Under the pieces are notes generated by a model that saw only the letters and a program-made list of their open reading frames with translations, did not search any database and had not been told where the DNA came from. Of a stretch of 64,000 bases of DNA, positions 5,371 through 59,234 are shown in pieces (position 1 is the first letter of the stretch; each line of letters starts with the position of its first letter). The position numbers were made by a program, and so were the translations under genes. Origin of the DNA: an uncultured Alphaproteobacteria bacterium (GTDB lineage: Bacteria; Pseudomonadota; Alphaproteobacteria; Rs-D84); the NCBI GenBank assembly GCA_949878575.1, contig CATLAX010000001.1:202752-266751 (forward strand), written 5' to 3'.

Positions 5371-5396
5371 AAAAATCCCCCGTCGGGGGATTTTAT
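5371..5396 (-). terminator. rho-independent terminator overlapping the pal stop codon
   Basis: aaaaatcccccgtcgggggatttt. GC stem followed on the minus strand by a T-run. Confidence 0.6.
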
Positions 5397-5797
5397 TTGT
5401 CAACACGGGTCGTGGTATTGCGGTTTTTTGCCCATACCTCTTCGCCTGTGCCAAAATACTGCGGGCGTTCCTTGCCGTATGATATTGTTTTCACGCGTGA
5501 CGGTTCAATTCCATCCTTGGTCAGCACGTGCGCCGCGTTGCCCGCACGCAATGCCCCCAGTGCCAGATTGTATTCCGTTGAGCCGCGTTCGTCACAGTGA
5601 CCTTCCATGGTGACGTTTATGTCTGGATGCTTTTTCATGTACAGCGCCTGGCCCTGCAGGTTGCGTGCCATTTCCGGTTGCACTTCGGCGGAATCAAATG
5701 CAAAGAATACTTTTTCTTCATTTAAGTTTGCCGGCATTTTTGTGCCGCCGCATGCGGCCAGTGTCAGTACGCCCGCTAAAAATAAAAATTTTTTCAT
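5393..5797 (-). CDS. pal: peptidoglycan-associated lipoprotein Pal (OmpA-like C-terminal domain)
   Basis: Lipobox LTLAAC|GG. OmpA-like blocks FAFDSAEV, GHCDERGSTEYNLALGALRA and ISYGKERP. Confidence 0.92.
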   Translation of the reverse strand: MKKFLFLAGVLTLAACGGTKMPANLNEEKVFFAFDSAEVQPEMARNLQGQALYMKKHPDINVTMEGHCDERGSTEYNLALGALRAGNAAHVLTKDGIEPSRVKTISYGKERPQYFGTGEEVWAKNRNTTTRVDK

Positions 5798-5938: not shown

Positions 5939-6673
5939 ATGCAAAAGTTAGTAAGTTTGAGTGTGATGATGGCTTTGATTGCGGCACCTGCGTTTGCGGC
6001 GCCCGGAAATGCCGTGCCGAGCCATATTTCCAAAGATGGCCGCGGTGGTTATGATGTTACGTACAGTTATAAGGACAAGACGAAAACCGGATGGTATATA
6101 ACCGGCCGGGCAGAGCTTAGCTTGCTAAACTTTAAAAACAAATACAGTGCGGATGAGCGCTGGATGGCGGATGAAAGCCATAACGAGGACAAATATTCGT
6201 TTGAACCGGTGTTTGGCGGATCTATTGCGGCCGGTAAAAAAATCAATTATTTCTGGCGTGCCGAACTGGAAGGCGGTTATCTGGGCTATTTCAGCGACGA
6301 AGACGTTGCGGCCAAATTTTCCATTTCAATGCCTTACCTGATGGCAAGCGGATATTATGATTTTACAAACGGTCTGTATGTGGGTGCCGGTGTGGGCGCG
6401 TCGCTGGCCAGTTATAAGATAAGCGGTGATTATTTCAACGGCTATGACAAGAAAAAAACAACGCTGTCGCCGATGGCCGGGCTGATGTTTGGCTGGACGC
6501 ATGCGCTGGATGACAATCTGGTGGTTGATCTGCGTTACCGCTTGGCCGGAATGACGGGTACGGAATTGAAACTGCATTTCCAGGATACGGATGACAACAC
6601 ATACTGGTTTAAATCCAAAACCGGCATGATATTGGACAACTCCGTGTCGCTGGGTATCAGGTATGAGTTTTAG
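5939..6673 (+). CDS. small outer-membrane beta-barrel protein (OmpA/Opa-like barrel family)
   Basis: Signal peptide ending AFA|AP. Alternating hydrophobic beta-strand pattern with aromatic girdles. C-terminal ...LGIRYEF has the terminal Phe typical of BAM substrates. Confidence 0.75.
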   Translation: MQKLVSLSVMMALIAAPAFAAPGNAVPSHISKDGRGGYDVTYSYKDKTKTGWYITGRAELSLLNFKNKYSADERWMADESHNEDKYSFEPVFGGSIAAGKKINYFWRAELEGGYLGYFSDEDVAAKFSISMPYLMASGYYDFTNGLYVGAGVGASLASYKISGDYFNGYDKKKTTLSPMAGLMFGWTHALDDNLVVDLRYRLAGMTGTELKLHFQDTDDNTYWFKSKTGMILDNSVSLGIRYEF

Positions 6674-6732: not shown

Positions 6733-8745
6733 ATGAAATACGAAGTTCAAATATCAAAGCTGGCGATTGTTTGTGTGTTGTGTACGTCGGCTGTGTCCGG
6801 TGCGTTTGCGGCGGCCTCTGTGCGGTCGCTGGGTGGTGCCGGCACGTATTCCGGAACGTCGTCCGCGGCAAATGCGACCGGTGCGCCCAGCAAGGCTATA
6901 AACGCCGTGCGTGCGGGGTCCATGCGCGTGTCGCCGTCGGGCACGTCCGCGAACCGGGCGCCGGCGGGGGGCACGACAACAACCGGGCGTGTTGCAACGT
7001 CACCGCGTTTGTCTATCGGAAAATATTTGGGGGGCGGCACATCGGTCAGCGGTGGCAGTTCCATTAAAAATCAAAAGCCCGGCAGCGGGACGTCAATCAG
7101 CAACGGGGGGAATTCGTCTGTTGATCCCGGCGTGATGAGTGAGCTGGAAGGGCGCGTATCCCATTTAGAAAACAATGTTTATGAACAGCAGGAAATAGAT
7201 TCCCTGTTAAGTGAAAAGCAGGGGGTGTTGTCCGGGGATGAATTCATTATGGTAGAAGATGACCAGATAATGCTAAATGTTGACAAACTGCAGGAAAATT
7301 TGGATGCGGTTGTCGGCAAAGACGGCAAGCAGGTTGTTATTGGGACTAATAAAGACTATATCCTGTGGCAGTATGAGGGTGACGGCGACAAGTGGAACAC
7401 GCTGGTTGCGCTGGAAGATTTGCGCGGTCCGCAGGGATTGCAAGGTCTGCAGGGTGAACAGGGGTTGCAGGGGCCCGCAGGTCCGCAGGGGCCGGCCGGT
7501 GAAAAGGGTGAAAAGGGTGAAAAGGGTGACAAAGGTGACCCGGGCGAGGGCGTGGATACCAGCAAATATTCCACGACCGAGCAGATGAATGAGAAAATTG
7601 CTCTTGCGATTGCTAATGCAAATTATGTCACGCCGGAAGAGATGAACGAGGCATTGGCCGGCAAACTTGATTCAACGGCACTGGCGGGTTATGCAACACA
7701 GTCTTATGTTGAAACCAGTGTGTCAAACGCCACTGAAAACCTGGCGTCTAAGGATGATATTCCGGTTGTTCCGACAAAGGTCAGCGCATTTGAAAACGAT
7801 GCGGGCTATCTGACACAGCATCAGTCGTTGGAAAATCTGGCGACCAAGGCGGAACTGGCGGGCAAGGCGAATGTGGCCGATGTGTACACCAAGACAGATG
7901 TGGATACAAAAATTAAGGATGTTGTTGCCGGCGACATGAGCGATGCTTTAAAAGAATATGCGAAAACGTCTGATGTTACAACAGCGCTGGCGGGCAAGGC
8001 CGATACGTCTGTAACGGACGGTCTGAACACGCGCTTAACCGCGGCAGAGGGTGAAATTTCCGAGATTAACGATTTGGCGACTGATGCGGCCACGGCTGCG
8101 GCCGATGCCTTGACGGCGGCCGGCAATGCCCAGACGACGGCGAATTCTGCGGCCACGACCGCAGAAGGGGCGGCGTCACTGGCCACAACTGCGAAAACTG
8201 CGGCGGATTCTGCCAAAACTGCGGCTGATGCGGCCACAGCGACGGCAAATTCTGCAACCAGTGTTGCGAATGCGGCCAAAACTGCGGCGGACAATGCTGT
8301 GGCCGGGTTGGCGGACAAAGCGGACAAGGCGGATGTTTATAATAAAACCGAATCCGATGACCGCTTTGCGGCAAAGGGCGGCGTTTACACTAAAGCAGAG
8401 GTTGACAAGAAAATTGAGGATGCCGGCATTGGCGATATTAATTTAGAGGAATATGCCAAAACGGATTACGTAAATACGGAACTGGCCAAAAAAGCCGATG
8501 CGTCCGCGCTGGGCTCGTATGCAAAAACGGCGGATTTGGGGGCGTTGGCCACAAAAGACAAAATTGAAGATGCGGATGTTGCGGATGGCGCGGCAATCGC
8601 AAAATCAAAACTGGCCACAGATGTGCAAACATCTTTGACCAGGGCGGACCAAGCGGTAACAGCACAGGATGCTCCACCTGAGGGCGACTATGTTCTGGCG
8701 GTCAGCAATGGTAAAAAGGAATGGTTCCAGGTGGTTGTAGAATAG
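6733..8745 (+). CDS. secreted fibrous protein F1: basic low-complexity N-region, collagen-like G-X-Y tract, Ala/Thr-rich tail-fibre-like shaft
   Basis: Signal peptide ...[10 protein letters not shown]|AA. Contains 14 G-X-Y triplets. Shaft repeats include [26 protein letters not shown]. Shares [21 protein letters not shown] and YSTTEQMN with F3. Confidence 0.85.
7426..7551 (+). repeat. collagen-like triple-helix tract (14 uninterrupted G-X-Y triplets) containing a 3x tandem 9-bp unit
   Basis: [42 protein letters not shown]. The unit gaaaagggt is repeated exactly at 7501-7527. Confidence 0.9.
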
Positions 8746-8816
8746 CCATTTCTGCGGTCATTGCTTGTAAAACATAGCCCCTCGGGTCTTAACAAGGGAT
8801 AAGGAAAGGAAAACAA

Positions 8817-9878
8817 ATGAAAGTAAAAAATATTGCTTTTTCTGGTTTTGCTGCAGCGGTTATGCTGAGTGCTGGCGTCGCAAATGCCGCCACCACAACA
8901 CAAATCGCCAGCAAGACGTATGTTGACAATACGGTTGGCGCGGTTGACGACAAGGTTACGACGTTGAACACGACGTTGACCGAACAGTACACGAAAACCA
9001 ATGATATGGGTACTGTCATCAATCAAAACATTACAAATGCCATTAATAATGAAGATGGGGCAATAAAGACCGCGTTGGATTCAAAGGCCGATGCGTCCGA
9101 TGTGCAAACTTTGACATCGCAGGTTGGAACAAATACCACCAACATCACGAACCTGACGTCACAGCAGACGACAAATACCGGCGATATTAGCCAGTTAAAG
9201 ACGGATGTTGCGGGCAAGGCGGACAAGTTAACCGGTGAAAATATCAAGGCCGGCAATATCGCAACAATCAGCGCAGATGGTAATTATACTGCCGGTACCG
9301 TTGCCGCATCAGACTTGGTGACAAATGCAACCGTTACTGAAAAAATTACCGCCGCGTTGGAAGGCAATGATTCCGTCAAAGAAATAATTACCAACATCGT
9401 TGGCAACGGCGACGTTGTAAAGGATGCGATTGACAACTCTGTTAAAGAGGGGACGCTGAAAACAGAGCTGGGCAAAAAGGCGGACAAAATCACCGTTACA
9501 GCGGAACAGGCGGGCAATTTGACCATGGTTGATGCCAACGGCCAGTATCAGGTTGTTGACGGTGTAAAGGCCGCTGATGTTGCCACAACGTCAGATGTTA
9601 CGACCATTATAAACAGCGCAATTACCGCCGATGATGGTGCTATCAAGACAGAGTTGGATAAAAAAGCCGATGCGGCGACCACGCTGGCGGGTTATGGTAT
9701 AACCGATGCGTATACCAAGACGGAAACGGATGCAAAAATTATTGATTTGGCGATTCCAAGGCCCACAGGCAACTGTGCGTCTGAATCCGGCCGCTGTGTA
9801 TTGTCTGTTGATACAGAAGGCAGTGGTCTGATGTGGCTGGATGTAACGTCACCGCTGGAACCGACGACTGGCGACTAA
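8817..9878 (+). CDS. secreted tail-fibre-like fibrous protein F2
   Basis: Signal peptide ...SAGVANA|ATT. Mature N-terminus IASKTYVDNTV. TLAGYGITDAYTKTETDAKI motif. C-terminal CASESGRCVLSVDTEGSGLMWLDV module. Confidence 0.85.
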   Translation: MKVKNIAFSGFAAAVMLSAGVANAATTTQIASKTYVDNTVGAVDDKVTTLNTTLTEQYTKTNDMGTVINQNITNAINNEDGAIKTALDSKADASDVQTLTSQVGTNTTNITNLTSQQTTNTGDISQLKTDVAGKADKLTGENIKAGNIATISADGNYTAGTVAASDLVTNATVTEKITAALEGNDSVKEIITNIVGNGDVVKDAIDNSVKEGTLKTELGKKADKITVTAEQAGNLTMVDANGQYQVVDGVKAADVATTSDVTTIINSAITADDGAIKTELDKKADAATTLAGYGITDAYTKTETDAKIIDLAIPRPTGNCASESGRCVLSVDTEGSGLMWLDVTSPLEPTTGD

Positions 9879-9916
9879 AGTTTTATAAATAAAAAAGAGA
9901 AGGAAAGGAACAAAAC

Positions 9917-10801
9917 ATGAAAAAACTAACAACCGGTATTTTTACAGTGCTGTTGGGAATGGTTGCCGTTGAAGCGAACGCGGCCGTTACGTCAAAGGCA
10001 TATGTTGATAACAAGTTTGATGCGGTTAAGGCGACGGCAGACGCTAACACCACGTCCATCGGTGCGTTGCAAACAACTGTGGCGGGCAAGGCTGACAAGT
10101 CTGTAACGGACGGTTTAACCACGCGTTTAACCGCGGCAGAGGGCGATATTGACGGCCTGCAGGGAACAGTTGGAAATGCAACTTCCGGCTTGGTAAAAGA
10201 CGTGGCAGATTTACAAGAGAATATGAAAAATGTTGCGACAACAGAAGGCTTGGGTGAATTAACGAAAACAGTTGAAGGTCATACAACATCTATAACTACA
10301 TTGACCGGCAGCGCGGACACAACGGGTTCTGTTGCGAATTCTATTAAGAATGCCTTGACCTCGTATTCCACAACCGAACAAATGAACACTGCGATTTCAG
10401 ACGCCACCAGTGACAAGGCGACAACAGAGGCTTTGACAACAGGTCTGGCTGGCAAGCAGGACAAGTCCAAGGCTGCGTATTCTGTCGGTGCCGCTGATGG
10501 TACATGGCAGGCATTGACCCAGGCACAGATTGATGCGTTGGATTCCACGATTACTGCAGCCAAAGTTTCCACATATGATGGTTATTCCGCAAAGATTACT
10601 GCAAATGAAACAGCTGCAGCCAATGCGCAAACCGCGGCAGAGGCGGCCCAAACAACTGCAAATGCGGCAATTCCAAAGGTAAATGCAGAGGGCGGCAACG
10701 GTAAGTATGTTTTGACTGCAACAGCAGTGGACGGAACCGCCACATATGCATGGGAAATTATAGAACGTGCCGGTGAGGGCTCTGAAAACGCCGGGCAATA
10801 A
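9917..10801 (+). CDS. secreted tail-fibre-like fibrous protein F3
   Basis: Signal peptide ...VAVEANA|AVT. N-terminus VTSKAYVDNKF. Modules are shared with F1 ([29 protein letters not shown]) and F5 (KVSTYDGY). C-terminal GKYVLTATAVDGTATYAWEII. Confidence 0.85.
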   Translation: MKKLTTGIFTVLLGMVAVEANAAVTSKAYVDNKFDAVKATADANTTSIGALQTTVAGKADKSVTDGLTTRLTAAEGDIDGLQGTVGNATSGLVKDVADLQENMKNVATTEGLGELTKTVEGHTTSITTLTGSADTTGSVANSIKNALTSYSTTEQMNTAISDATSDKATTEALTTGLAGKQDKSKAAYSVGAADGTWQALTQAQIDALDSTITAAKVSTYDGYSAKITANETAAANAQTAAEAAQTTANAAIPKVNAEGGNGKYVLTATAVDGTATYAWEIIERAGEGSENAGQ

Positions 10802-10891
10802 ACAAATATTTCGGGTTGCCGGTGGTCCGGCAACCCGGGAAAAATGAAAGCGCGGGCATTTTGCGGATAAAAATAAAGATTGAGTAAAGAT

Positions 10892-12466
10892 ATGAAAAAG
10901 AATGGAATTTTGGCGATTTCTCTGGTTGCAGTATTTGCGGTTAGCAATGCATATGCGGATATCGCGTCAACTACTTATGTTCAAAAAGCGGCGTCTGTAT
11001 CTAATGGTGACGGTATTATTTCAACAATTTCGGTGGCCGATGACGGCACGCCGACAGTTACGCGCAGACAGTTGGCAAATACAGATATAGCGGACCGTGG
11101 AATTGATGCGGGCAAGGTTGCGACCACAAAAGCCGGAACAGAATATGATAACATGGGTGAAGAAGCCAAGGAAACGGCCATCCCCACGGTAACGTTGGTG
11201 GAAAATATTGCTGATACCGCCGCAGGTACCGCTGTTAGCAGTGCAATAAAGAATTATGCCACAAAATCTGCGTTGGATGCCGAAATAGCAGCCCGTACAA
11301 GTGCAGATGAAGCGTTGGGTGACAGAATTGATGCAGAGGCCACTGCCCGTCAGACCGCGGATAACAACATAACCGCTAAATTCGGTGATTTGGGAACCAA
11401 GACAGTTGCGCAGGCGATTGCAGACGCCAAAACATCCGCTACATATGACGATACTGCTTTGAAAGGTCGGGTTTCGGCTAATGAAACAGCAATTTCCAAT
11501 ATACAAAGCAGTGCTGCGATGACCTCTGGTGTGACAAAGGCCATAGTTGACAGTGTAACGAATGCGACCACCGGTTTGGCTGCGACACGTACGCTGGCAC
11601 AACAGGGGGTTGTTGACGCGGCCGCTGCGCAAGAGGCTGCCGATGATGCTGCTGCCGCTGCCGCAACAGCGGATGGCAAGGCTGTTGCTGCGCAGAATAC
11701 CGCGAATACGGCCAAAACAACGGCAGAAGCTGCATTGCCAAAGGCAAGTGCCAATGTTGCCGCGGACGGCACGTATATTAAGGCCGGTACTGATGTAAAG
11801 GCGAACTTAGGCTTGCTGGATACTGCAACGAAGGCAGCAAAAGACCAGGCTGATAAAGGCGTGGCGGATGCTGCTGCGGCAAGCTCTGCGGCAAGTGCGG
11901 CCCAAAGCACAGCTAATACGGCAAATTCCACCGCAAATGCAAACAAGGCGGCGATAGAAAATGCGACAACGGGGCTTGCCGCTACTAAAAAGATTGCCGA
12001 CGCCGCATTACCAACGGCTACATATAATGCGGATACGACCGTTACAGATGGTAATTATGTAAAAGCTGCTAATAAAGTAAATGCGAACTTAAAAGCGTTG
12101 GATACCGCGGTAAAGGCGGCGGCGGATGCGGCCACATCATCGTCCAATACGGCTTTGGATAGCGCCAAGGCATATACGGATACGAAAGTGAACGCGTTGG
12201 ATTTGGCAACACAGACAGGTAACGGTGTTATCAAAACCGTGACACAGACAGATGGTAAGGTTACGGTAACACGCGGAACGGTTGCAACTGCGGAAATTAC
12301 AGATGGTGCTGTGACCAATGAAAAGATTACCTCTGTTGCATCCAGCAAGGTTACAGGCTTAACAGAACTGGCAACCTTGGCAATGCCTGCGGCATGTGCG
12401 ACAAATGAATGTGCTTTGGTATATGACAAAACTACAAAAGCACCGAAATGGGAGGTTGTTAGATAA
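10892..12466 (+). CDS. secreted tail-fibre-like fibrous protein F4
   Basis: The ATG at 10892 is preferred over the TTG at 10880. Signal peptide ...AVSNAYA|DIA. N-terminus IASTTYVQKA. Contains the TKAGTEYDNMGEEAKETAIPTV cassette and Ala-rich AAQNTANTAKTTAEAA runs. C-terminal CATNECALVYDKTTKAPKWEVV. Confidence 0.85.
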   Translation: MKKNGILAISLVAVFAVSNAYADIASTTYVQKAASVSNGDGIISTISVADDGTPTVTRRQLANTDIADRGIDAGKVATTKAGTEYDNMGEEAKETAIPTVTLVENIADTAAGTAVSSAIKNYATKSALDAEIAARTSADEALGDRIDAEATARQTADNNITAKFGDLGTKTVAQAIADAKTSATYDDTALKGRVSANETAISNIQSSAAMTSGVTKAIVDSVTNATTGLAATRTLAQQGVVDAAAAQEAADDAAAAAATADGKAVAAQNTANTAKTTAEAALPKASANVAADGTYIKAGTDVKANLGLLDTATKAAKDQADKGVADAAAASSAASAAQSTANTANSTANANKAAIENATTGLAATKKIADAALPTATYNADTTVTDGNYVKAANKVNANLKALDTAVKAAADAATSSSNTALDSAKAYTDTKVNALDLATQTGNGVIKTVTQTDGKVTVTRGTVATAEITDGAVTNEKITSVASSKVTGLTELATLAMPAACATNECALVYDKTTKAPKWEVVR

Positions 12467-12587
12467 CACCCGGTGATTTATGTGGCGTGATAAAATCAAA
12501 TTGCGCCACATAATGGCTTGTCTTGTATGGGCGATTTGTGATATTATATAGAAAGTAAAGATTGGATTAGTAGAGAGTTTGTAAGAT

Positions 12588-14597
12588 ATGAGGCGTTTTG
12601 TTGGCATTTTTTCTGTCTCTGTTATCGCGATAATGGCGGCTTGTAATGTTTTTGCGGCCACGTCTGATGATGTTGCTGATTCTAATATCGCATCAGTTGG
12701 GTATGTAAAAGGGGCTATTGAAGACTTGGATGTTACAGATACAGCTGTTACAGGCCAGGTTGTAACCAAGGTCAGTCAGACAGATGGTAAAATTGCTGTG
12801 AGCCGCGGCACGGTTTCTTATAACAATTTGACTGATAAACCGGCATTAAAGACTGTTGCGACAACCGGTTCTTATAATGATTTGACAAATAAGCCTACTA
12901 TTCCCGCGGCTCAGGTACAACCGGACTGGAATGCAACAACGGGTATGGGGGCCATAAAAAATAAACCGACATTGGGCTCTCTTGCGGCTAAAAGTTCTGT
13001 GACAAATGCAGATATTGCGGATGGTGCTAATATTGCCGCCGCTAAGATTGCAACGACAAAAGCTGGAACAGGATATGATAACATGGGTGAAGAAGCCAAG
13101 AAAACGGCTGTTCCCACGGTAGAATTGACTGAAAATATCGCCGATACCGCCGCAGGTACCGCTGTTACCAGCGCCTTAAAAAATTATCAGCCGAAGGCAA
13201 CCGCAAATTATCAGATGGGTAATTCTGAGGGTAAGTGGACAACAATGTCGGCGAATCAACAGAATGCTTTGAATTCCGGTATTACCAGTGGAAAAGTATC
13301 AACATATGACGGATATGCCACAGGTAAGGTAAATGTAGCGCAAGGGACCAGCGCGGCCAGCAAGGCGGTTGTGACGGATGCATCTGGAAATGTTACAACC
13401 GGGCAGGTTGTCTCCGGTATGATAGCGGACAATGCCGTTACCAGTGCAAAGATAGCAAATAGAACAATTACAACATCCGATATAAGTGCGAGCGCTGGGA
13501 TAACAAAGGGTCAGTTGGCGTCAGCGGTTCAGGCATCTTTGGATAAAGCGGACAAGGCGTTGCAGGCGCATCAGGATATTTCCGGTAAGGTAAATGTGGC
13601 ACAGGGAAGTACTGCGGCCAGCAAGGCGGTTATAACAAATGCATCCGGAAATATAACAACTGGACAGGTTGCCACTGGTATGATAGCGGACAATGCTGTT
13701 ACAAGCGCAAAGATAGCGGACGAGGCTGTTACCAGTGCAAAGATAGCAAATGGAACGATTACGACATCCGATATAAGTGCGAGCGCTGGGATAACAAAGG
13801 GTCAGTTGGCGTCAGCGGTTCAGGCATCTTTGGATAAAGCGGACAAGGCGTTGCAGGCGCATCAGGATATTTCCGGTAAGGTAAATGTGGCACAGGGAAG
13901 TACTGCGGCCAGCAAGGCGGTTATAACAAATGCATCCGGAAATATAACAACTGGACAGGTTGCCACCGGTATGATAGCGGACAATGCCGTTACAAGCGCA
14001 AAGATAGCAAGTGATGCTGTCACCAGTGCAAAGATAAAAGACGGTACTATTACAAATGCAGATATTGCGGCGGCTGCGGCAATAGCCCCTACTAAGGTTG
14101 CGGCCACAAAGGCTGGAACAGAATATGATAACATGGGCGAAACGGCTAAGGAAACAGCTATTCCCACGGTACAGTTGGCGGAAAATATTGCTGATACCGC
14201 CGCCGGTGTTGCCGTTAGCAGTGCCTTAAAAAGTTATCAGCCGACGTCAACCGCGGTGACCCATACGGCAAATACTGCGGTCGGGTCTGAGGATCTTCCT
14301 GTATATGTTCAAGCATCTGGAGCGGCTGCAACGATAAAAGTTGATACGCAGCCGAATGTAGAGAGTAAAAAACTTATTACGAGTGGAGGGGTCTATCAGG
14401 CAATAAAAGATGTAAGAGGTGGTCTTGATCTTGACTCTACTGTAATTGGGGTTACGGGTGGGGCGGCCGCCACGGGTAAGGTTGTTACATCTGTTACAAA
14501 AAGCGGACGAAATGTTGCTGCTACGATGGATTATGTAAAGATTCCGGTTGGATCCGCGACCGCGCCAACCAGTGTAGCGTCAATATGGGTTGAATAA
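12588..14597 (+). CDS. secreted tail-fibre-like fibrous protein F5 with internal 87/97-aa tandem repeats
   Basis: Signal peptide ...AACNVFA|ATS. N-terminus IASVGYVKGA. SYNDLTNKPT and NNLTDKPAL motifs. Two TKAGT(E/G)YDNMGE cassettes. Three GKVNVAQG... repeat units. Confidence 0.85.
   Translation: MRRFVGIFSVSVIAIMAACNVFAATSDDVADSNIASVGYVKGAIEDLDVTDTAVTGQVVTKVSQTDGKIAVSRGTVSYNNLTDKPALKTVATTGSYNDLTNKPTIPAAQVQPDWNATTGMGAIKNKPTLGSLAAKSSVTNADIADGANIAAAKIATTKAGTGYDNMGEEAKKTAVPTVELTENIADTAAGTAVTSALKNYQPKATANYQMGNSEGKWTTMSANQQNALNSGITSGKVSTYDGYATGKVNVAQGTSAASKAVVTDASGNVTTGQVVSGMIADNAVTSAKIANRTITTSDISASAGITKGQLASAVQASLDKADKALQAHQDISGKVNVAQGSTAASKAVITNASGNITTGQVATGMIADNAVTSAKIADEAVTSAKIANGTITTSDISASAGITKGQLASAVQASLDKADKALQAHQDISGKVNVAQGSTAASKAVITNASGNITTGQVATGMIADNAVTSAKIASDAVTSAKIKDGTITNADIAAAAAIAPTKVAATKAGTEYDNMGETAKETAIPTVQLAENIADTAAGVAVSSALKSYQPTSTAVTHTANTAVGSEDLPVYVQASGAAATIKVDTQPNVESKKLITSGGVYQAIKDVRGGLDLDSTVIGVTGGAAATGKVVTSVTKSGRNVAATMDYVKIPVGSATAPTSVASIWVE
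13323..14040 (+). repeat. in-frame tandem direct repeat inside F5 (units of 261 and 291 bp plus a partial third)
   Basis: Units start at 13323, 13584 and 13875. Segment 13473-13675 is identical by eye to 13764-13966 (offset 291), with near-identity continuing for about 30 bp more. Confidence 0.9.
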
Positions 14598-14657
14598 ACA
14601 AGTTTCCCGAAAGGGATGGAGAGGAGAAGACGGGTAATCGTCTGACCGAGGAGAGTA

Positions 14658-14690
14658 AAACAGCGGCATTGCCGCTGTTTTATGTTTCTT
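14658..14690. terminator. bidirectional rho-independent terminator between F5 and yqaA
   Basis: aaacagcggc att gccgctgttt followed by a T-rich run. An A-run precedes it and serves the opposite strand. Confidence 0.7.
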
Positions 14691-18514: not shown

Positions 18515-19522
18515 GTGGCGCATCAGTTCTATTTTAATCCGTATATTCTGGACAACCTGCCGGCGCCGAATGCCGGGTTTGATGTGGTTCAGGATATATC
18601 AGAACCGCGCCTGCGGATGTATGTGACCAGTCGTGGGGTTAAGACCTTTTTTGTGCGGAAACGTGTCGGCGGCCGCGACCGCCGCCTGATAATAGGCAAC
18701 TATCCTGATATGGATATAGAACAGGCGCGCGCCGCCGTGCAAAATGTGTTGGATGTGGCCGCGCAGAAACCGCGCGTGCGCCGCCGCCAGATTACGTTCG
18801 GGCGCCTGGTTCAAATGTATCTGGACGCGCGCGTGCGCCGCAGTGAAGACGGCATGGTAAAACTACGGCGCGCCATTGCGCGTCATCTGTCGGAAATTAT
18901 GGATAAAAATGTTTCATCCATAACGGGCGACGATTTAAGCAATGTTATTTCCAAAATATCCGGCCCGGCCATTGCCGCGCGCATGCAGGAGTTGCTGCAG
19001 AGCATATTTAAATACGCCATTGAGGCCGGGTATGTAAAAAGCAATCCTGCGGCGGACTTGCACAGGGTTGAACAGCGCCGGCGCGTGCGCCCGTTGACGC
19101 GTGCCGGCATGGTTCGTCTGATAGAGGCAATAGAACGGGAACCGTCGCCTGTTCTGCGTGCGGCGTTTTTGATGCTGGTGTACGGTTTCGCGCCAAAATC
19201 ACAGGTGTTTGCGATGCGCTGGTCTGATTTGGATTTTAATCATTACATGTGGGGCGCACGCCCGCTGTCCGATGCGGCGGTTGTGTTGCTGCAGGATTTG
19301 CCCCAGGATGGCAACTGGGTTTTTTCTGTGCGGGGAAAAATGCGCCTAACAGATCCCAGAACCAGCTGGCGCCGTGTGGCGGCGGATGCCGGAATTCCAA
19401 ATTTGACAATGGATGACGTGCATAAGTTTATGATGCGACATCTGGTCTGGGCGTCCGGGGCAGAAGATTTGCGCGAGAATATGAACGCATTGATTGAAGA
19501 GATAAACGGCCTAAACATATAA
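18515..19522 (+). CDS. P4-like tyrosine-recombinase (integrase) homolog that has lost catalytic residues, a probable relic
   Basis: GTG start. The N-terminus (LPAPNAGFDVVQDISEPRLRMYVTSRGVKTFFVRKRVGG...IGNYPDMDIEQARAAV) is classic DUF4102/P4-integrase. Box I reads VYGFAPKSQVFAMRWSDLD with no Arg. The HxLRHT-like box is degenerate (DDVHKFMMRHL). There is no C-terminal LGH...Y nucleophile region. Confidence 0.65.
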   Translation: MAHQFYFNPYILDNLPAPNAGFDVVQDISEPRLRMYVTSRGVKTFFVRKRVGGRDRRLIIGNYPDMDIEQARAAVQNVLDVAAQKPRVRRRQITFGRLVQMYLDARVRRSEDGMVKLRRAIARHLSEIMDKNVSSITGDDLSNVISKISGPAIAARMQELLQSIFKYAIEAGYVKSNPAADLHRVEQRRRVRPLTRAGMVRLIEAIEREPSPVLRAAFLMLVYGFAPKSQVFAMRWSDLDFNHYMWGARPLSDAAVVLLQDLPQDGNWVFSVRGKMRLTDPRTSWRRVAADAGIPNLTMDDVHKFMMRHLVWASGAEDLRENMNALIEEINGLNI

Positions 19523-26378: not shown

Positions 26379-27155
26379 ATGAAAAAATTAGCTTTGACTT
26401 CTTTGCTGGCCGTTTTTGCGGTATCCGGCGCGCATGCGGCTAATGTGATTAATAATAATCCGTTATATCGTCCGGAAGCGGGACAGTTTTACAGCGTAAC
26501 AGATCTGGGTTCGGATTCCCGTAACACCAGCCGCGTTTTGCTGGATGAAGAATTCGGCTATGGCCTGACAAATTACCTGTCTGCGACTATTACCACATCG
26601 GCGTCCCAGACAGACTGGTTTGACAATGGTGCGTGGGATCATGTCGGTGTCGGCCTGAACTGGCGCGCGGTTGACATGGGCAACTGGAAGGGGGATATCT
26701 TTGGCTCTTATAATGCATTGTCATTGGGAACATGGGGTGATGACGATTCCTGGTTTGACGAAGATGTAACTGCTTATAAATGGACGGCCGGCGTGCGTGC
26801 GGGTTATGCGACAGCAGGCTGGACTGTTGCCGGTCATGTCGCGTTTGACTATTACAACACAGAATCCTTTAACTGGGATGATTCCGGTCTGCACATGTTG
26901 CGCTTTGGCTTGGACGGCCAGTTGGTGCTGAACCAAAACTGGAACCTGATCGCTGGTGTTGAATACAACGCCGATTATGACAACTGGTCTGACAATGTCG
27001 GCTATTGGACAGGAAAGTTTGGTGCAAACTATAACTTTGATGCCAACAAGTTCCTGGGTGCCTATATTACCAAGACAATGGATCACAATGGTGCCGGCAA
27101 CTGGGAAGTTGATGACGGCTTTGGCTTTGGCGCCACATTTGGTGTTCAATTCTAA
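26379..27155 (+). CDS. outer-membrane beta-barrel protein (porin-like, unknown family)
   Basis: Signal peptide ...AVSGAHA|AN. Aromatic/Gly/Asn/Asp-rich alternating strands. C-terminal GFGATFGVQF with terminal Phe. Confidence 0.7.
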   Translation: MKKLALTSLLAVFAVSGAHAANVINNNPLYRPEAGQFYSVTDLGSDSRNTSRVLLDEEFGYGLTNYLSATITTSASQTDWFDNGAWDHVGVGLNWRAVDMGNWKGDIFGSYNALSLGTWGDDDSWFDEDVTAYKWTAGVRAGYATAGWTVAGHVAFDYYNTESFNWDDSGLHMLRFGLDGQLVLNQNWNLIAGVEYNADYDNWSDNVGYWTGKFGANYNFDANKFLGAYITKTMDHNGAGNWEVDDGFGFGATFGVQF

Positions 27156-48468: not shown

Positions 48469-51459
48469 TTAAAATTGTGTGTCACTGCATTCTTCGGTTG
48501 ATTCCGCCCACTGTTTACATTTTGGCATGCCGAACAGGGGATAAGACTGTTTTATGCATTTTGTTGATTTTACGCATTTGTGACAGTTTAACGAATCCCA
48601 GTTAAAACTGGTGTCAATTACCTGCTTGTAATTCCACTGGTCTAACTCGTGATGTCCCGTCAGTTCGCGTTGTGCGGCTGATGTTCCGCCTTTGCTATGG
48701 TCGGCGGTGGCCTGGGCAATGGTTCCGCCAACCAGTGCCGCGGCACCGACACCGGCAGCTGCAACGGTTGCAATGCCTGTTGCCGTAAGGGCAGAACCTG
48801 CCGCGAATATAGATGCAGCAGTGGTTGTAGTTATTGTTGCAGTTGATGTTATGGTGGCTGCTGGTATTGTTATAGCAACCCCAGTGATTGCGGGCATTTC
48901 TGCTGTCAAAGATATTGTAGTGGTAGCTGCAGCTGTTGCCAATGGGGCTCCTGTTCCAAGGGTTAACACGGTTACAGCAACAGAGGCGGCGACAACGACT
49001 CCGACAACCAGCCACATTCCCCAGCCGCTGGGTGGCGGCGGCGACATGGGCAGGGATGCCGCATCAGCCAAGCTGACACATGATATTCGTGCTGCCTCAC
49101 GCCGAACATCCTTGGCATTTTCTCCTTTTATTTTCGCTTGGCGCTCGGCCATGGTTATGTAATCTTTCATTTGTTGATTATATGCAATATCATATTTTTT
49201 ATAATAATTTGCTTTGGCGGCATTAAGTGCAGATGTGGCGATAATATTACGCATTTGTTTGGTAAGCTCTGGGAAACGTGCAATCTTTTCTCCGCTGACC
49301 GGAGCGTCTTTCATTCCCTGAACTCTGCGCCCGGTCATACAGAATTGTACAGTTGGATCTGATTCAATGGCTGCTACCGCGGTATTGATTTGAGATTTTA
49401 ATTTTGTTATTTCTCGGGCGACTTTTTCTTTTGTGGACGGTTGCATTTTGGATGCATCAATTGATTTAAAATATTCTTCGGCGCTGGGAATATTGCCGTT
49501 GACGTCTATGTTTAACTGCTCCCAAAACATGATGCCGTCAATTACAGACACGAATGGCACAACAGGTCCCAGCTCACCTGTGGTTGAACCCGGTACACGA
49601 CCCAATTCAATATCTTGGATTTGATCAATGCTGGTGCGACATTGTGAATAGTCAATTTCAGCGTTATCGCCATTAATTTTATAATAACAAATACCATAGC
49701 TTAGACTACCTGTACCTATATGGTCGTCTGTTGCTATGGCGTTACAGTTTTCTGTATCGCCGCAGACCTTAATCATGGCTTCATCGGCGGCGTTCTGGCA
49801 GAATTCCATCATATTATTATCAATACCGAGCATGATACCCTGTACCATTCGGTCCAGTTCGTCGTACACCGCATCGCCGCGTATGTCCTTGCCTTCTTTC
49901 TGATACACCTGCTGGCAACCGGTTAGTTTGTCATACGGGCACATGCGGATGATGGTATCCGTATCCAGTCCGACGCACTGTGTGTAATCCTTGCCACAGC
50001 GGTCGTCAGACTGCAGACACTGTTTTACCTCATTGGTGCAGCTGTCAACACGCATGGACGCCAGGCGGGCGTAAACATAGTCCATGATAAGTGGTTCTGC
50101 GGCCTCGCACGGGTCTATTTGAACCTTGCACAAAGAACGCACTGTTTCGGGCCGCGACAGGCACATGTCGTATGAGCCGTCAGGATCGTTAGGATCCATG
50201 GTGTCCTTGCACGCTTTTTGGAAACATGCGGATATGTTGGATATGCAGGATGTTCTTAAATCGGATTCCGCCAAGAGTTCCGCAGTTTTGATTTGCGGTG
50301 CAACCTCACGCAAAAAAGTGTCCCAGACCTGGTCTTTGACGGCGACGCAGGAATTGGTAATGCTCATGCACATGGGCTTTTTTGATTCCAGAGCATCATA
50401 AGAGGAAGCGGCGATGGAGATTTTGGTTGCGCTGCCCTTAATGTCGTACATTTTCATTTTGGATTTTGCGCCGACGGACTGTTTTGCGTTTTCAGCGGCG
50501 GCAATACCGACACAACCCTTGAAATCGTCACCGCATCCGGCCGTTGTTGCCATGCACTTTTTAAATTCCACCGTGCACTGGCCCAAATCGTACTTGTTCG
50601 CCGTCCGCAGCTGCTCGTACGCGGATGTGCGCATTGCGCGCTGGGCCTCTGATAAACGTGTTTCCGCCGTGCGGCGCTGTTCTTTGATGGCGTTTTCATA
50701 TGCGGCGCAGTCCCCGCGAATTTTCCCGTTATATATTGTGCGCAGCATTGTTTCAGATTGCTTGCATTCCGGCATGCGTTCCATGCATATTGCAATTGCG
50801 CTGCCATAAAGTTCTTCACCGGTTTTATTTTTTTCATCACTGTTATCGGATGTGTCAGTATCCGTTTGCTGGTTCCACAGTGCCGTGTCTATTTTTTTAC
50901 GGGTCGTGCTGGGGGCGGATAGATTTGAAATGGAGACACCTGTTTCTATGGCCTCAACGCCGACAGTCGCCAATGAATAGCTTTGCTGGTCCAGTTTTTC
51001 TATTTCCGCCAATACAGCATCCAGTTCGGCGTTTCTGTTACTGCATAAACAGCGGCCGCCGTTGACATTTTCCATCATGCAAAAAGCGTCCAGGCATCCG
51101 TTGAATTTTTCCTGACAGTTGTCGGCAACAACAGTGTTTTGGCCGGCGGCGGCGACTTTTGTTCCCGTGCCGATAACCTTTTGTGTTGCGCCCGCGCGGG
51201 CCGCGACGGTGTTTGCGGTGCCACTGTTTGCCGGGGTGCCGCGTTGAACGGTTGTGCGTCCGGCGGTTGCACTGCGCACTGCGGATGGCGCGCCCGTCAC
51301 GGGTGCGGTTCGTGTGGCACTGCGTGCAGATACGGATTTTGTGCCCGCCACCGGCGCCGCGGTACCCGCGCCGCCGCCCCGCCGCTGTTGCGGCGTGGCG
51401 GAAAAGCCTTGCAAGGTAAATAATGTAATGGAAACAGCAACGGCTATATATTTGTGCAT
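48469..51459 (-). CDS. large secreted cysteine-rich protein, paralog A (CRP-A), with a C-terminal hydrophobic A/T/G/V-rich insert
   Basis: 996-aa ORF. Signal peptide MHKYIAVAVSITLFTLQGFS|AT. Basic R/S/A/T/G low-complexity region. Many spaced Cys residues (CQEKFNGCLDAFCMMENVNGGRCLCSNRNAELD...). Conserved C-terminus ...ECSDTQF. Unknown family. Confidence 0.8.
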   Translation of the reverse strand: MHKYIAVAVSITLFTLQGFSATPQQRRGGGAGTAAPVAGTKSVSARSATRTAPVTGAPSAVRSATAGRTTVQRGTPANSGTANTVAARAGATQKVIGTGTKVAAAGQNTVVADNCQEKFNGCLDAFCMMENVNGGRCLCSNRNAELDAVLAEIEKLDQQSYSLATVGVEAIETGVSISNLSAPSTTRKKIDTALWNQQTDTDTSDNSDEKNKTGEELYGSAIAICMERMPECKQSETMLRTIYNGKIRGDCAAYENAIKEQRRTAETRLSEAQRAMRTSAYEQLRTANKYDLGQCTVEFKKCMATTAGCGDDFKGCVGIAAAENAKQSVGAKSKMKMYDIKGSATKISIAASSYDALESKKPMCMSITNSCVAVKDQVWDTFLREVAPQIKTAELLAESDLRTSCISNISACFQKACKDTMDPNDPDGSYDMCLSRPETVRSLCKVQIDPCEAAEPLIMDYVYARLASMRVDSCTNEVKQCLQSDDRCGKDYTQCVGLDTDTIIRMCPYDKLTGCQQVYQKEGKDIRGDAVYDELDRMVQGIMLGIDNNMMEFCQNAADEAMIKVCGDTENCNAIATDDHIGTGSLSYGICYYKINGDNAEIDYSQCRTSIDQIQDIELGRVPGSTTGELGPVVPFVSVIDGIMFWEQLNIDVNGNIPSAEEYFKSIDASKMQPSTKEKVAREITKLKSQINTAVAAIESDPTVQFCMTGRRVQGMKDAPVSGEKIARFPELTKQMRNIIATSALNAAKANYYKKYDIAYNQQMKDYITMAERQAKIKGENAKDVRREAARISCVSLADAASLPMSPPPPSGWGMWLVVGVVVAASVAVTVLTLGTGAPLATAAATTTISLTAEMPAITGVAITIPAATITSTATITTTTAASIFAAGSALTATGIATVAAAGVGAAALVGGTIAQATADHSKGGTSAAQRELTGHHELDQWNYKQVIDTSFNWDSLNCHKCVKSTKCIKQSYPLFGMPKCKQWAESTEECSDTQF
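49907..50616 (-). repeat. near-identical tract shared with CRP-B (copy 1)
   Basis: Matches 52538-53247 at a constant offset of 2631 bp. I saw only two mismatches (49927, 49954). The flanks are clearly diverged. Reverse-frame ORFs 50126-50401 and 52757-53032 are identical. Confidence 0.9.
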
Positions 51460-54198: not shown

Positions 54199-54394
54199 AA
54201 AATATCCCTTCAACATTCATTTGATTTTATCATATTTTCATGCTTTTTAAAAATTGTTTTTTTCTTATTATTACAGTATGTGACAAATAAATCAGTTGGC
54301 TGATGCTTTGTGTAAAAAAACGGGGCAACGGCTCCGATTTTTGTAGACGTTTGTCTGGGGATGAAAGAAAACAGTGCTTATACTCTGCCGGGAC

Positions 54395-58133: not shown

Positions 58134-59234
58134 TTACGCGGCTTTTTTCATATCCTGTTTTATGCCGCGCAGATATTTGCGCAGTTCGTCAATCGGAACC
58201 AGCGTGCCGTCACGGCGTTCTGCCGACCAGTAATCCCATCCGTTAAAGCTGACACTGTGTTGCAGACGCGCCGCCATTACGTGAATTGAGGCCTTGCCGT
58301 GCAGTGTGTGGGTTAATTGGCCGTCGCGTGTTATCATGACGCGCGCGCCGCGCGGGGATACCAGTGTCTGGCCCACATACAGCAGGCCGGCGTCAATTAG
58401 TTCCTTAAAGGCGATGCGTGCCTCGGCCCGTTTGGGGGCGGCAACCTCTATTTCAGACAGATCGGCCGGTATTGTGTTTTCAACACGGCGGCGTGCGGCC
58501 GCAACGTATGATTCTTCGCGTTCAAATCCTATGAAATTGCGCCCCAGTTCGCGTGCGGCGGCGGCGGTGGTGCCACTGCCCATGAACGGGTCAAGGATAA
58601 TGTCACCCGGTCTGGTTGAAGACAGTATTACACGCCGCAACAAATCCATGGGTTTCTGGGTGTTGTGCAAACTTTTGCCGTCGGCGCCTTTGACGCGTTC
58701 TTCGCCCAGGCAGATGTTTATGTCCCAGTCGGAACGCATCTGTTTGCCGCCGTTCATTTTTTTCATTGTTTCATAATTAAATGTGTATTTTCCGGTTTTC
58801 TGCGGTGTCGCCCATATCAAGGTTTCATGGGCGTTTGTAAAACGCGTTCCGCGAAAGTTTGGCATGGGATTTGTTTTTACCCATACTATGTCGTTTAAAA
58901 TCCAAAAGCCTAAATCTTGCAATATTGCGCCAACGCGGAAAATATTGTGATAGCTGCCGATGACCCACATGGCGCCGTCGGGCTTTAGAACGCGTTTGCA
59001 CTCGCTTAGCCAGGCGCGTGTAAATTTGTCGTATTCGGCCGGACTGTCAAATGCATCCCATGCGTCGCGTACGGCGCGCGCGGCTGTTTGGTCTTCGGGG
59101 CGGTACAGTGTTTTTGCGCCCAGTTGCAGGTTATACGGACTGTCGGCGAAAACGGCGTCAATAGAATTGTCCGGAAGCCCGCGCATCATTTCAATGCAGT
59201 CGCCCGCTAAAATCTTGTTCAGGTATTTTTCCAT
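58134..59234 (-). CDS. ccrM: CcrM-like beta-class N6-adenine DNA methyltransferase (GANTC-type family) with a DSPY variant of motif IV
   Basis: N-terminal ILAGDCIEMMRGLPDNSIDAVFADSPYNLQL. FxGxG AdoMet motif LDPFMGSGTTAAAA near the C-terminal third (beta-class order). About 80 aa of extra C-terminal domain, as in CcrM. Confidence 0.85.
   Translation of the reverse strand: MEKYLNKILAGDCIEMMRGLPDNSIDAVFADSPYNLQLGAKTLYRPEDQTAARAVRDAWDAFDSPAEYDKFTRAWLSECKRVLKPDGAMWVIGSYHNIFRVGAILQDLGFWILNDIVWVKTNPMPNFRGTRFTNAHETLIWATPQKTGKYTFNYETMKKMNGGKQMRSDWDINICLGEERVKGADGKSLHNTQKPMDLLRRVILSSTRPGDIILDPFMGSGTTAAAARELGRNFIGFEREESYVAAARRRVENTIPADLSEIEVAAPKRAEARIAFKELIDAGLLYVGQTLVSPRGARVMITRDGQLTHTLHGKASIHVMAARLQHSVSFNGWDYWSAERRDGTLVPIDELRKYLRGIKQDMKKAA

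Follow-up and report, generated by a model that had tools for sequence, protein, structure and literature searches.

The 64,000-nucleotide stretch of DNA considered here (hereafter the window; GenBank assembly GCA_949878575.1, contig CATLAX010000001.1, positions 202,752 to 266,751 of the forward strand) comes from an uncultured alphaproteobacterium of the Rs-D84 lineage and carries a tandem array of five genes, F1 to F5, whose products are predicted to be fibrous. On balance, we lean towards reading this array as a fixed fiber locus of Rs-D84/Candidatus Enterousia, which encodes surface rods for attachment and/or evasion. The genes represent five ancient positional types, which differ from one another in signal peptide, mature N-terminal motif and C-terminal end, all three being conserved within a type. 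An earlier description of the window (the preliminary description) had proposed a chromosomal, diversifying family of trimeric, phage-tail-fiber-like surface fibers. This interpretation was largely right in spirit; it over-called the phage kinship and the surface-adhesin function and missed the ordered, lineage-wide types.

The array consists of five open reading frames on the + strand, with the coordinates that the preliminary description had given them (Table 1), intergenic gaps of 38-121 bp and a purine-rich stretch 5' of each; F4 has an alternative TTG start at 10880. Ala, Thr, Gly, Asp, Lys and Val predominate in the composition of the products. Their N-termini show two K/R residues followed by a 10-residue hydrophobic core (mean Kyte-Doolittle hydropathy 2.0-3.1) and small-x-small cleavage sites (F1 AFA↓AAS, F2 ANA↓ATT, F3 ANA↓AVT, F4 AYA↓DIA, F5 VFA↓ATS). 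By a heuristic rule that combines these three features, used without SignalP, all five look Sec-exported, as had been claimed for them. No canonical lipobox was seen in F1-F5 when the sequences were read by eye; Pal, encoded nearby, has a canonical LAAC. The signal peptide of F2 (MKVKNIAFSGF...) leads into a mature N-terminus of ...TTQIASKTYVD, that of F3 (MKKLTTGIF...) into AVTSKAYVD, and that of F4 ends in ...AYA↓DIASTTYV, with an Ala-rich helical shaft following in the protein. Hairpins, with a Cys-loop in F2 and F4, form the C-termini of F2, F3 and F4, and F5 combines YNDLTNKP motifs and a phage-type repeat module with a distinct conserved C-terminus (...IPVGSATAPTSVASIWVE). Transcription of the array probably ends at the hairpin 3' of F5, which matches the terminator consensus only. 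Another strong hairpin, an 11-bp GC-rich palindrome, occupies the F3-F4 gap (10812-10837); it has no T-run on the + strand and is terminator-like on the - strand, and it may either separate transcription units within the array or serve as an element of mRNA stability.

The order of the genes emerged from a survey that took one genome from each GTDB species and yielded 80 loci as separate records, nearly all of them from species-level metagenome-assembled genomes (MAGs) and including a closed chromosome of 958,618 bp. These are mostly titled Candidatus Enterousia, 'uncultured Rickettsiales' or 'Alphaproteobacteria bacterium' and come from human, chicken, ruminant and other guts. Type signatures (Table 1) were obtained by listing the genes between the upstream outer-membrane protein gene (OMP) and yqaA in each locus, and were then used for a rule-based classification of the 40 complete loci. 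With the exception of four minimal loci, the order is constant: type 1, type 2 in at least one copy, type 3, an optional type 4 and type 5, apart from a few genes that the rules left untyped. In three of the four minimal loci a type-1 N-terminus is joined to a type-2 C-terminus, and all four have a type-3 gene. The number of genes per locus ranges from 2 to ~7, supernumerary copies being mostly of type 2, and orthologues of type 2 and type 4 stand at positions 2 and 4, respectively, across loci. In at least 65 loci the first gene keeps the N-terminal 230 residues of F1 at 34-64% identity, with VRxLGGxGTY, RxGSxRV and PRLSIGxYLGG as invariant motifs, and the total length of type 1 varies from 300 to 1468 aa. 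Thus, where the preliminary description saw a single diversifying family of shuffled variants, we find five types in fixed order with signal peptides and termini of their own. For F3 there are 255 homologues, all unnamed proteins of uncultured gut Alphaproteobacteria, and a profile search of 1.84 billion representative proteins (clusters at 50% identity) returned 1424 clusters at E<=0.001 and 492 at E<=1e-10; the family is hence sizeable but lineage-restricted. A full-text literature search on 'Enterousia' and 'Rs-D84' found no paper describing these proteins or the locus.

What is conserved within each type is its ends. Among 59 F3-type proteins, mean pairwise identity falls from 73% in the signal peptide to 65% in the mature N-motif, 42% in the C-terminal 40 residues and 36% in the middle, the last counted over aligned columns only. 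No part of the fiber proteins is as conserved as the signal peptides, of which each positional type has its own sequence across species; such conservation above that of the mature protein is unusual for signal peptides. The shafts, in turn, change rapidly in both sequence and length (whole proteins are of 230-392 aa among the F3 type and of 230-1468 aa in the family overall). In the four nearest species the flanking proteins are 83-94% identical to those of the window, while partial alignments of the fibers give 51% for F1, 45-58% for F2, 33-34% for F3, 31-41% for F4 and 45-52% for F5, with differing lengths; the array is the fastest-evolving stretch of its neighborhood. The motifs and shared cassettes quoted in the preliminary description were all recovered where it had placed them, and the cassettes are repeated at the level of DNA, where their sharing exceeds chance. 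Across loci, TLAGYGITDA occurs in 14 F1-type, 6 F2-type, 4 F3-type and 1 F4-type proteins, STYDGY in the F3, F4 and F5 types, and ADxAVTxxKI in all five. A comparison of near-clonal assemblies (99.9-100% identical over 20 kb) caught a change in repeat number: one of them (L003) has an F5 of 572 aa instead of 669, with precisely one 291-nt unit absent and the DNA otherwise 99.9% identical. From the conserved ends, the shared modules and this repeat loss we conclude that the locus diversifies by exchanging cassettes and by gaining and losing repeats, with its ends held constant. The mosaic and diversifying character claimed earlier is thereby upheld, as is the recurrence of modules; the conservation of both ends is the reverse of the conserved anchor and variable tip of a receptor-binding fiber. 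A diversity-generating retroelement was also considered, because some F5 relatives carry Mtd_N, and was rejected: the two 291-nt repeats differ in 8 places without specificity for adenine (4/8 at A), and no reverse transcriptase is encoded in the window.

In essentially all loci whose flanks extend far enough, the array occupies one chromosomal slot, in the order tolB, nuclease, plsC(-), DUF218(-), ftsX(-), ftsE(-), pal(-), OMP(+), fibers(+), yqaA(-), rbfA, lepA, an integrase-like gene and fabF. An orthologue of OMP lies directly 5' of the array in 65 loci, FtsE flanks it in 67 and YqaA in 50. The GC content of the array (0.47-0.52) is like that of the rest of the window, and the identical locus is present in MAG GCA_948953715.1 and several ENA gut assemblies. 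No capsid, portal, terminase, tape-measure, baseplate or lysis gene lies within the 64-kb window, which extends to its whole length the absence of adjacent phage structural genes noted earlier, and IMG/VR, scanned with the family alignment, has no viral contig encoding a relative. On synteny, GC and the viral-contig scan we reject a prophage or mobile island, and the array, ~8 kb retained in a genome of ~0.9 Mb (~1%), is a fixed locus of the chromosome, to which the preliminary description had also assigned it. The notion that the genes are leftovers of a degraded phage or tailocin would draw on the PHROG and phage tblastn matches of the F5 and F1 modules detailed below and on the integrase-like gene 4 kb downstream, but the shared core-gene slot in ~80 species speaks against it, and the integrase-like gene is no marker of a mobile element because it is itself syntenic (lepA, the gene, acpP/fabF), conserved at 60-80% identity in ~40 species and devoid of a catalytic-domain match. 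Its C-terminus, inspected by eye, apparently lacks the catalytic Tyr region; its conservation nonetheless suggests a domesticated or degenerate recombinase. Signal peptides, for their part, are not generally expected on virion fibers. Such a remnant is extremely improbable, and we regard it as refuted for practical purposes. Separately, two loci titled as other taxa, Bacteroides fragilis (L036) and Muribaculaceae (L014), have a fiber array with Rs-D84 flanking genes, and a third, titled Clostridia (L075), is a 1.5-kb contig with a family gene only; all three are most likely Rs-D84 contigs that were mis-binned.

The kinship with phage tail fibers is a matter of modules. It is clearest in F5, of which residues ~230-486 match phage tail-fiber proteins: in PHROG, phrog_2012 (minor tail) at 2e-14 and phrog_892 (tail fiber) at 1e-9; by tblastn, cyanophage/T7-like tail-fiber(-like) proteins and roseophage 'host specificity protein J', at 31-39% identity over ~210-255 aa with E down to 2e-12. 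Relatives of F5 in the protein databases carry Mtd_N, PTR, Phage_tail_C, T4_gp9_10_N, Collar and Gp10_C domains. The PHROG matches of F1 fall mostly on its collagen segment, which tail-fiber families match, with a short phrog_2012 match at the C-terminal repeat unit, and its residues 272-670 have no tblastn match in phage genomes. In F2 the phage match is confined to the 33-aa TLAGYGITDAYTK region, which is 67% identical to a counterpart in the crAss-like phage cr52_1; F4 has neither a phage tblastn nor a PHROG match, and none of F2-F4 matches a tail-annotated PHROG family. TLAGYGITDA and other short motifs also have phage counterparts. Since the matches are limited to modules, the fibers are therefore mosaics that include phage-fiber modules, not tail fibers as a whole. 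The label of phage-tail-fiber-like given to the whole array thus holds for the F5 module, the collagen and C-terminal unit of F1 and several short motifs, and fails for F2-F4, which are mostly helical rods.

The predicted structures are those of rods. AlphaFold2 models were made of the monomers of F3 (59-sequence alignment) and F1 (46 sequences). In the former (mean pLDDT 76.5), seven helices (5-58, 61-106, 109-129, 139-148, 153-180, 202-209 and 214-251; the longest of 54 residues, many with pLDDT >90) are followed by a C-terminal beta-hairpin with strands at 263-271 and 274-282. The model of F1 (mean pLDDT 53) begins with an unstructured region (1-132), whose residues 27-131 are predicted to be disordered yet bear conserved motifs, and continues with a helix (132-166), a small beta domain (172-226, pLDDT ~62-80), the collagen segment at the low confidence expected of a single chain, further helices, of which one (425-529, pLDDT 85-88) spans 105 residues, and a C-terminal hairpin cap. 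These long, confident helices bear out the preliminary description in calling the proteins fibrous, and go against the disorder that it had named as refuting. The collagen segment is the sole feature of F1-F5 above the Pfam cut-off, F2-F5 having none, and it also matches collagen chains in the PDB; sequence searches of the PDB gave no match for F5 and nothing but this segment for F1. A heptad-like hydrophobic periodicity above the 95% shuffle threshold was seen in 13-27% of sliding windows, where 5% would be expected, and the Pfam Alanine_zipper model (PF11839) is precomputed on some F1 homologues, though not found on the proteins of the window at E<=1. Many C-termini of the F2, F3 and F4 types have a conserved Cys-x5-6-Cys loop, and conserved Cys pairs point to an oxidizing compartment and to folding outside the cytoplasm. 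With its collagen segment, F1 is most naturally a trimer; for F2-F5 we infer the same from their coiled-coil architecture, and all five would form parallel oligomeric rods. The trimers of the preliminary description thus gain indirect support from the F1 collagen repeat and the coiled-coil and alanine-zipper segments, the models themselves being of monomers. The helical and collagen segments of F1 add up to an estimated length of well over 500 Angstrom, which is too long for the protein to stand upright in the periplasm. One long family member has a Phage_head_fibr match (28.5 bits). No S-layer, SLH, RTX, flagellin or pilin model of Pfam or NCBIfam matches F1-F5, a result that goes against the non-fiber families, such as S-layer proteins and flagellin, which the preliminary description had named as refuting hits.

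On the reading that we favor, each protein would be made with its type-specific Sec signal peptide, exported to the periplasm and cleaved, with the Cys-x5-6-Cys loop of several C-termini undergoing oxidative folding there. It would then assemble into a parallel homotrimeric rod of segmented coiled coils and alanine zippers, to which F1 would add a collagen triple helix, and F1 and F5 the phage tail-fiber repeat modules. The C-terminal beta-hairpin would cap the rod and probably set the trimer register, like the foldon in T4 fibritin. At the other end, the mature N-motif (I/V)(A/T)SKxYVD is the best candidate for export recognition or envelope anchoring, and its equivalent in F1 would be the conserved, Arg-containing disordered region. 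The rods would project from the cell surface as fibrils, with the shafts as the variable, exposed and selected part, diversified by cassette exchange between paralogues, the import of phage-fiber modules and repeat gain and loss. Such fibrils might serve in attachment to partner or host cells, in phage or immune evasion, or in both. The extracellular location, anchoring end, polarity and adhesive function of the rods are inferred.

Several observations weigh against this reading. Outer-membrane passage is the weakest link of the proposed mechanism: no translocation device was found, neither an autotransporter barrel in Pfam nor a usher, T2SS or T1SS gene in the window, and the only constant neighbor, OMP, belongs to a small-barrel family. 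Its constant adjacency is compatible with a partnership, and it is a candidate partner of the fibers. The combination of two conserved ends with a variable shaft is atypical for receptor-binding fibers, and even the longest family members, of up to 1468 aa, have no lectin, Ig or other tip domain. Foldseek returned nothing at E<=0.001 for the F3 model against the PDB and BFVD or for the F1 model against the PDB, a comparison for which long helices are uninformative. Homology of the C-terminal hairpin to the foldon, considered on account of a pattern seen by eye (IPxxP...G.YV....G..W..I), was rejected, and we retain it as an analogy of architecture alone: with a profile of 42 C-termini, the PDB yielded no fibritin or foldon-tagged chain, the only match being an irrelevant one at E=0.4; none of the 42 matches Pfam Fibritin_C (PF07921); and an hhalign comparison with the foldon returned a probability of 0.6%. 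P0090 is the one homologue for which a PF07921 match is precomputed.

Other arrangements of the same parts can be conceived. The ordered F1-F5 and the adjacent OMP could constitute a previously undescribed surface-fiber organelle, whose rods dock on one another or on the cell via their conserved ends and by which the bacteria attach to, and perhaps feed from, host cells, though we think this rather unlikely. Such an organelle would be specific to partner-dependent, tiny-genome gut Alphaproteobacteria; the short mature N-motifs would direct export or anchoring, and the signal peptides would owe their conservation, greater than that of the mature proteins, to service in a dedicated pathway. A related proposal holds that the five types are parts of a single ordered assembly, placed end to end or stacked on F1 like T4 gp34-gp37, with each N-motif docking on the C-terminal hairpin of another type. 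The fixed gene order of complete loci fits with this, as do the minimal loci, which retain a type-1/2 fusion and type 3, and N- and C-terminal signatures that are kept across species around a variable middle are what protein-protein joints would lead one to expect. However, each gene has a signal peptide and ribosome-binding region of its own and could act alone; a gene number of 2 to ~7 with extra type-2 copies implies no required stoichiometry; and the conserved ends are explained equally well if one of them serves export or anchoring and the other nucleates folding. We judge the docking scheme, and the composite assembly that it would build, to be improbable.

Less likely than a composite assembly are two rivals that place the rods elsewhere. 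They might form a released or loosely attached coat, matrix or decoy layer, be it S-layer-like, a fibrillar capsule or a set of phage-receptor decoys. A Sec signal on a rod-shaped protein with no anchor domain recognizable in Pfam would suit such a layer, hypervariable shafts and changes in repeat copy number fit antigenic or phage-evasion pressure, and the other large secreted Cys-rich proteins described below suggest a rich surface proteome. Against this, there is no S-layer, SLH or RTX match, and specific docking is suggested by the invariance of the mature N-motifs and by the F1 N-region; while we consider such a layer improbable, it is not truly exclusive of the surface rods that we prefer. 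Alternatively, the proteins could act within the periplasm as coiled-coil tethers or spacers, in the manner of the Lpp/OprI alanine zippers and functionally linked to tol-pal and OMP, in keeping with the position of the array beside pal, tolB and OMP in all genomes, with the alanine-zipper-like helices and PF11839 matches of F1 homologues, and with the want of an export device for the outer membrane. But the estimated lengths exceed the width of the periplasm and differ between species over the entire 230-1468 aa range, the divergence is extreme relative to the flanking envelope genes, phage receptor-binding-fiber modules and collagen are typical of exposed proteins, and the fibers have no lipobox. 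We consider periplasmic tethers highly improbable.

Table 1. Position of the fiber genes, their modules and flanking features in the window, with the signatures of the five positional types (arrows mark cleavage sites of signal peptides)
Feature	Position	Strand	Description	N-terminal signature of type	C-terminal signature of type
pal	5393-5797	-			
OMP, small outer-membrane beta-barrel protein	5939-6673	+	244 aa; signal peptide; ends ...IRYEF; Pfam OMP_b-brl 31.9 bits, cut-off 28.7		
F1, type-1 fiber	6733-8745	+	670 aa; position 1; always first gene	MK...↓SSVRSLGGxGTY..., ~230 conserved residues	...VLGxDxxGxPxWYEI or second 18-residue variant
F1 collagen G-X-Y triple-helix segment	7426-7551	+	residues 232-273, 14 triplets; Pfam Collagen 30.8 bits, cut-off 27.2		
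79-nt cassette in F1	7980-8058	+	F3 copy 10072-10150; repeat family D7, 85% identity		
F1 C-terminal beta-hairpin cap	8683-8742	+	AlphaFold2 strands 653-658, 661-666, pLDDT 67-75; motif kept in F1 orthologues		
F2, type-2 fiber	8817-9878	+	353 aa; position 2	MKVKNIAFSGFMAAIL...↓..QIASKQYVDN	CxAESGxCVLSV...W.DVT.P
F2 TLAGYGITDAYTK motif	9681-9719				
F2 Cys-loop hairpin C-terminus	9774-9848				
F3, type-3 fiber	9917-10801	+	294 aa; position 3	MKKLTAGIFTVLLG...↓A(I/V)(T/A)SK(A/G)YVD	AIPKPxxxCxxxxxKCVLTxxxxxYxWEVIER, or Cys-free GxYVLTA variant
F3 signal peptide	9917-9982				
F3 C-terminal hairpin GKYVLTATAVDGTATYAWEIIER	10700-10768				
F4, type-4 fiber	10892-12466	+	524 aa; position 4	MKKILTxSLVAMMAVSAA(R/N)A↓DIASTxYV	...YTLTMKVV..YxWEKIGR, or Cys-loop ...WEVV(K/R)
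211-nt cassette TKAGTEYDNMGE...IPTV...NIADTAAG in F4	11064-11274	+	F5 copies 12994-13204, 14044-14254; repeat family D1, 66-79% identity		
TKAGTEYDNMGE	11126-11161, 14106-14141		variant TKAGTGYDNMGE at 13056-13091		
F4 Cys-loop hairpin CATNECALVYDKTTKAPKWEVVR	12395-12463				
F5, type-5 fiber	12588-14597	+	669 aa; always last gene	own signal peptide	TDGKVTVTKGNVQIPVGSxTATTYAxIWVE at very end, conserved across loci
SYNDLTNKPT in F5	12870-12899				
Two tandem 291-nt (97-aa) units in F5	13421-14002	+	repeat family D3, 97% identity		
Terminator-like hairpin 3' of F5	14655-14683	+	13-pair stem, then T-rich tail; consensus match only		
Integrase-like gene	18515-19522	+	335 aa; Arm-DNA-bind_3 and Phage_int_M Pfam matches, no catalytic-domain match		

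In the window itself, the genes upstream of the array are tolB, an SNase-like gene, plsC, a DUF218 gene, ftsX, ftsE, pal and the OMP_b-brl gene, and those downstream are a VTT/yqaA-type gene, rbfA, a GNAT gene, lepA, the integrase-like gene and fabF; the immediate neighbors pal, OMP and yqaA/rbfA had been correctly named in the preliminary description. The remainder of the window holds the ribosomal-protein/secY/rpoA cluster. The SNase-like nuclease adjoining tolB (1758-2168, +; 136 aa; Pfam SNase 24 bits, cut-off 21) carries a signal peptide and is kept at this site in 44 loci; it could help an organism of reduced metabolism to scavenge nucleotides. Besides OMP, another putative outer-membrane protein (26379-27155, +; 258 aa) has a signal peptide, is aromatic/Gly-rich, ends in ...FGVQF and has no Pfam match. 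Three further genes (48469-51459, -; 51472-54216, -; 55552-57831, +) encode Cys-rich proteins of 996, 914 and 759 aa, respectively, all with signal peptides and none assigned to a Pfam family. A long identical block common to the first two points to a recent duplication or gene conversion. The mature N-termini of these Cys-rich proteins are Arg/Ser/Thr/Ala-rich and of low complexity, resembling the N-region of F1, and a homologue of the 759-aa protein (C-terminus ...CIENY.VAKSYGACE) lies directly 3' of the array in some other genomes (L007:15046-17052; L079:14687-16825); they may be further surface proteins with a common targeting or anchor region. Finally, an N6/N4 DNA methylase with a RAMA domain (58134-59234, -; Pfam 225 and 37.1 bits) has no adjacent restriction enzyme that we could identify.

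The biology of the lineage lends interest to such a locus. Rs-D84 genomes are of 0.75-1.0 Mb, lack the TCA cycle, respiration and flagella, have an incomplete glycolysis and no standard transporters for sugars, amino acids or peptides, and their bearers are predicted to be obligate symbionts or parasites taking metabolites from other cells, with 'hypothetical membrane-bound proteins' left unexplained (PMC12306168). On account of this reduced metabolism they are thought to live off partner cells, and Rs-D84/Candidatus Enterousia are widespread in human and animal guts. The array, with ~1% of the genome committed to it, always at the same site in the genomes examined, and with its rod, collagen and phage-fiber parts, is the most obvious candidate for making contact with partners. 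It offers targets for antibodies, for fluorescence in situ hybridization (FISH) and immuno-electron microscopy (immuno-EM), and for partner identification, as well as a hypervariable strain marker for these uncultured bacteria. It also poses an export puzzle, namely how Sec-exported rods without a known translocator domain would reach the surface.

Among known systems, the closest functional precedent, by analogy, would be the MAT (mosaic adhesive trimer) fibers of Bdellovibrio bacteriovorus, phage-like mosaic trimers with a signal peptide that have been shown on the surface of the predator (Caulton et al., 2024, PMC10769870). Like them, the array is chromosomal without a nearby prophage and encodes several mosaic paralogues with signal peptides, phage tail-fiber kinship and elongated rods of the trimer type, in a bacterium that must contact other cells. 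The defining features of MAT fibers, however, are a ~130-aa beta-rich N-domain, a beta-prism shaft and variable tips including an S74 protease (PMC10769870), whereas F2-F5 share only ~10 conserved residues after the signal, with F3 modelled as helical from there on, and in F1 the region after the signal is disordered and motif-bearing (27-131). The Enterousia shafts are predicted to be alpha-helical or collagen, their C-termini are conserved within each type and have no tip domain or Peptidase_S74, and the genes stand in one ordered, syntenic array. The solved MAT tips in the PDB gave no sequence match, and the MAT N-domain was compared by its description only.

In terms of architecture, the monomer models of F3 and F1 resemble T4 fibritin (gp wac), which is likewise a segmented alpha-helical coiled-coil rod with a small C-terminal beta-hairpin, attached by its N-terminus and with trimerization nucleated by the C-terminal foldon. 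In contrast to fibritin, the predicted hairpin of the array proteins is longer and often closed by Cys-x5-6-Cys, and these are cellular proteins with signal peptides, not virion components. Other phage fibers, such as the fiber-like proteins of cyanophages P-GSP1 and S-TIP37 and proteins with Mtd_N, Collar, Gp10_C or T4_gp9_10 domains, have 'phage tail repeat' units homologous to F5 ~230-486 and to the C-terminal unit of F1, and have the TLAGYGITDA and YNDLTNKP-type motifs in common with the array, but the latter differs in its signal peptides and in having neither a virion context nor phage N-terminal adaptor or C-terminal tip domains. Trimeric autotransporter adhesins (YadA, BadA, UspA1) are comparable as Sec-dependent, modular, repetitive coiled-coil rods that vary in length between strains; membership in this class (type Vc) was rejected, as there is no YadA_anchor match at E<=1 and the C-terminus is modelled as a two-strand hairpin with a hydrophilic tail, not as a four-strand anchor. 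The G-X-Y segment of F1 beside coiled coils, the hypervariable rods and the variable repeat number recall the collagen-like and coiled-coil surface proteins typified by streptococcal Scl, M proteins and Legionella Lcl. This likeness is limited to the collagen repeat: there is no LPXTG in the array, and the NCBIfam models stay far below their cut-offs (SclA 35.7 vs 400 bits, Lcl 32.3 vs 500, SclB 23 vs 325). Lpp/OprI alanine-zipper lipoproteins were set aside in view of the absent lipobox, the sizes of F1-F5 (294-670 aa) and the lack of PF11839 on the window proteins at E<=1. The array hence belongs to none of the MAT fibers, the trimeric autotransporters or fibritin, and its products are cell-encoded mosaic fibers; if they act as we propose, they would furnish a second, independent example, after the MAT fibers of Bdellovibrio, of cells adopting modular proteins in the style of phage fibers for cell-cell contact.

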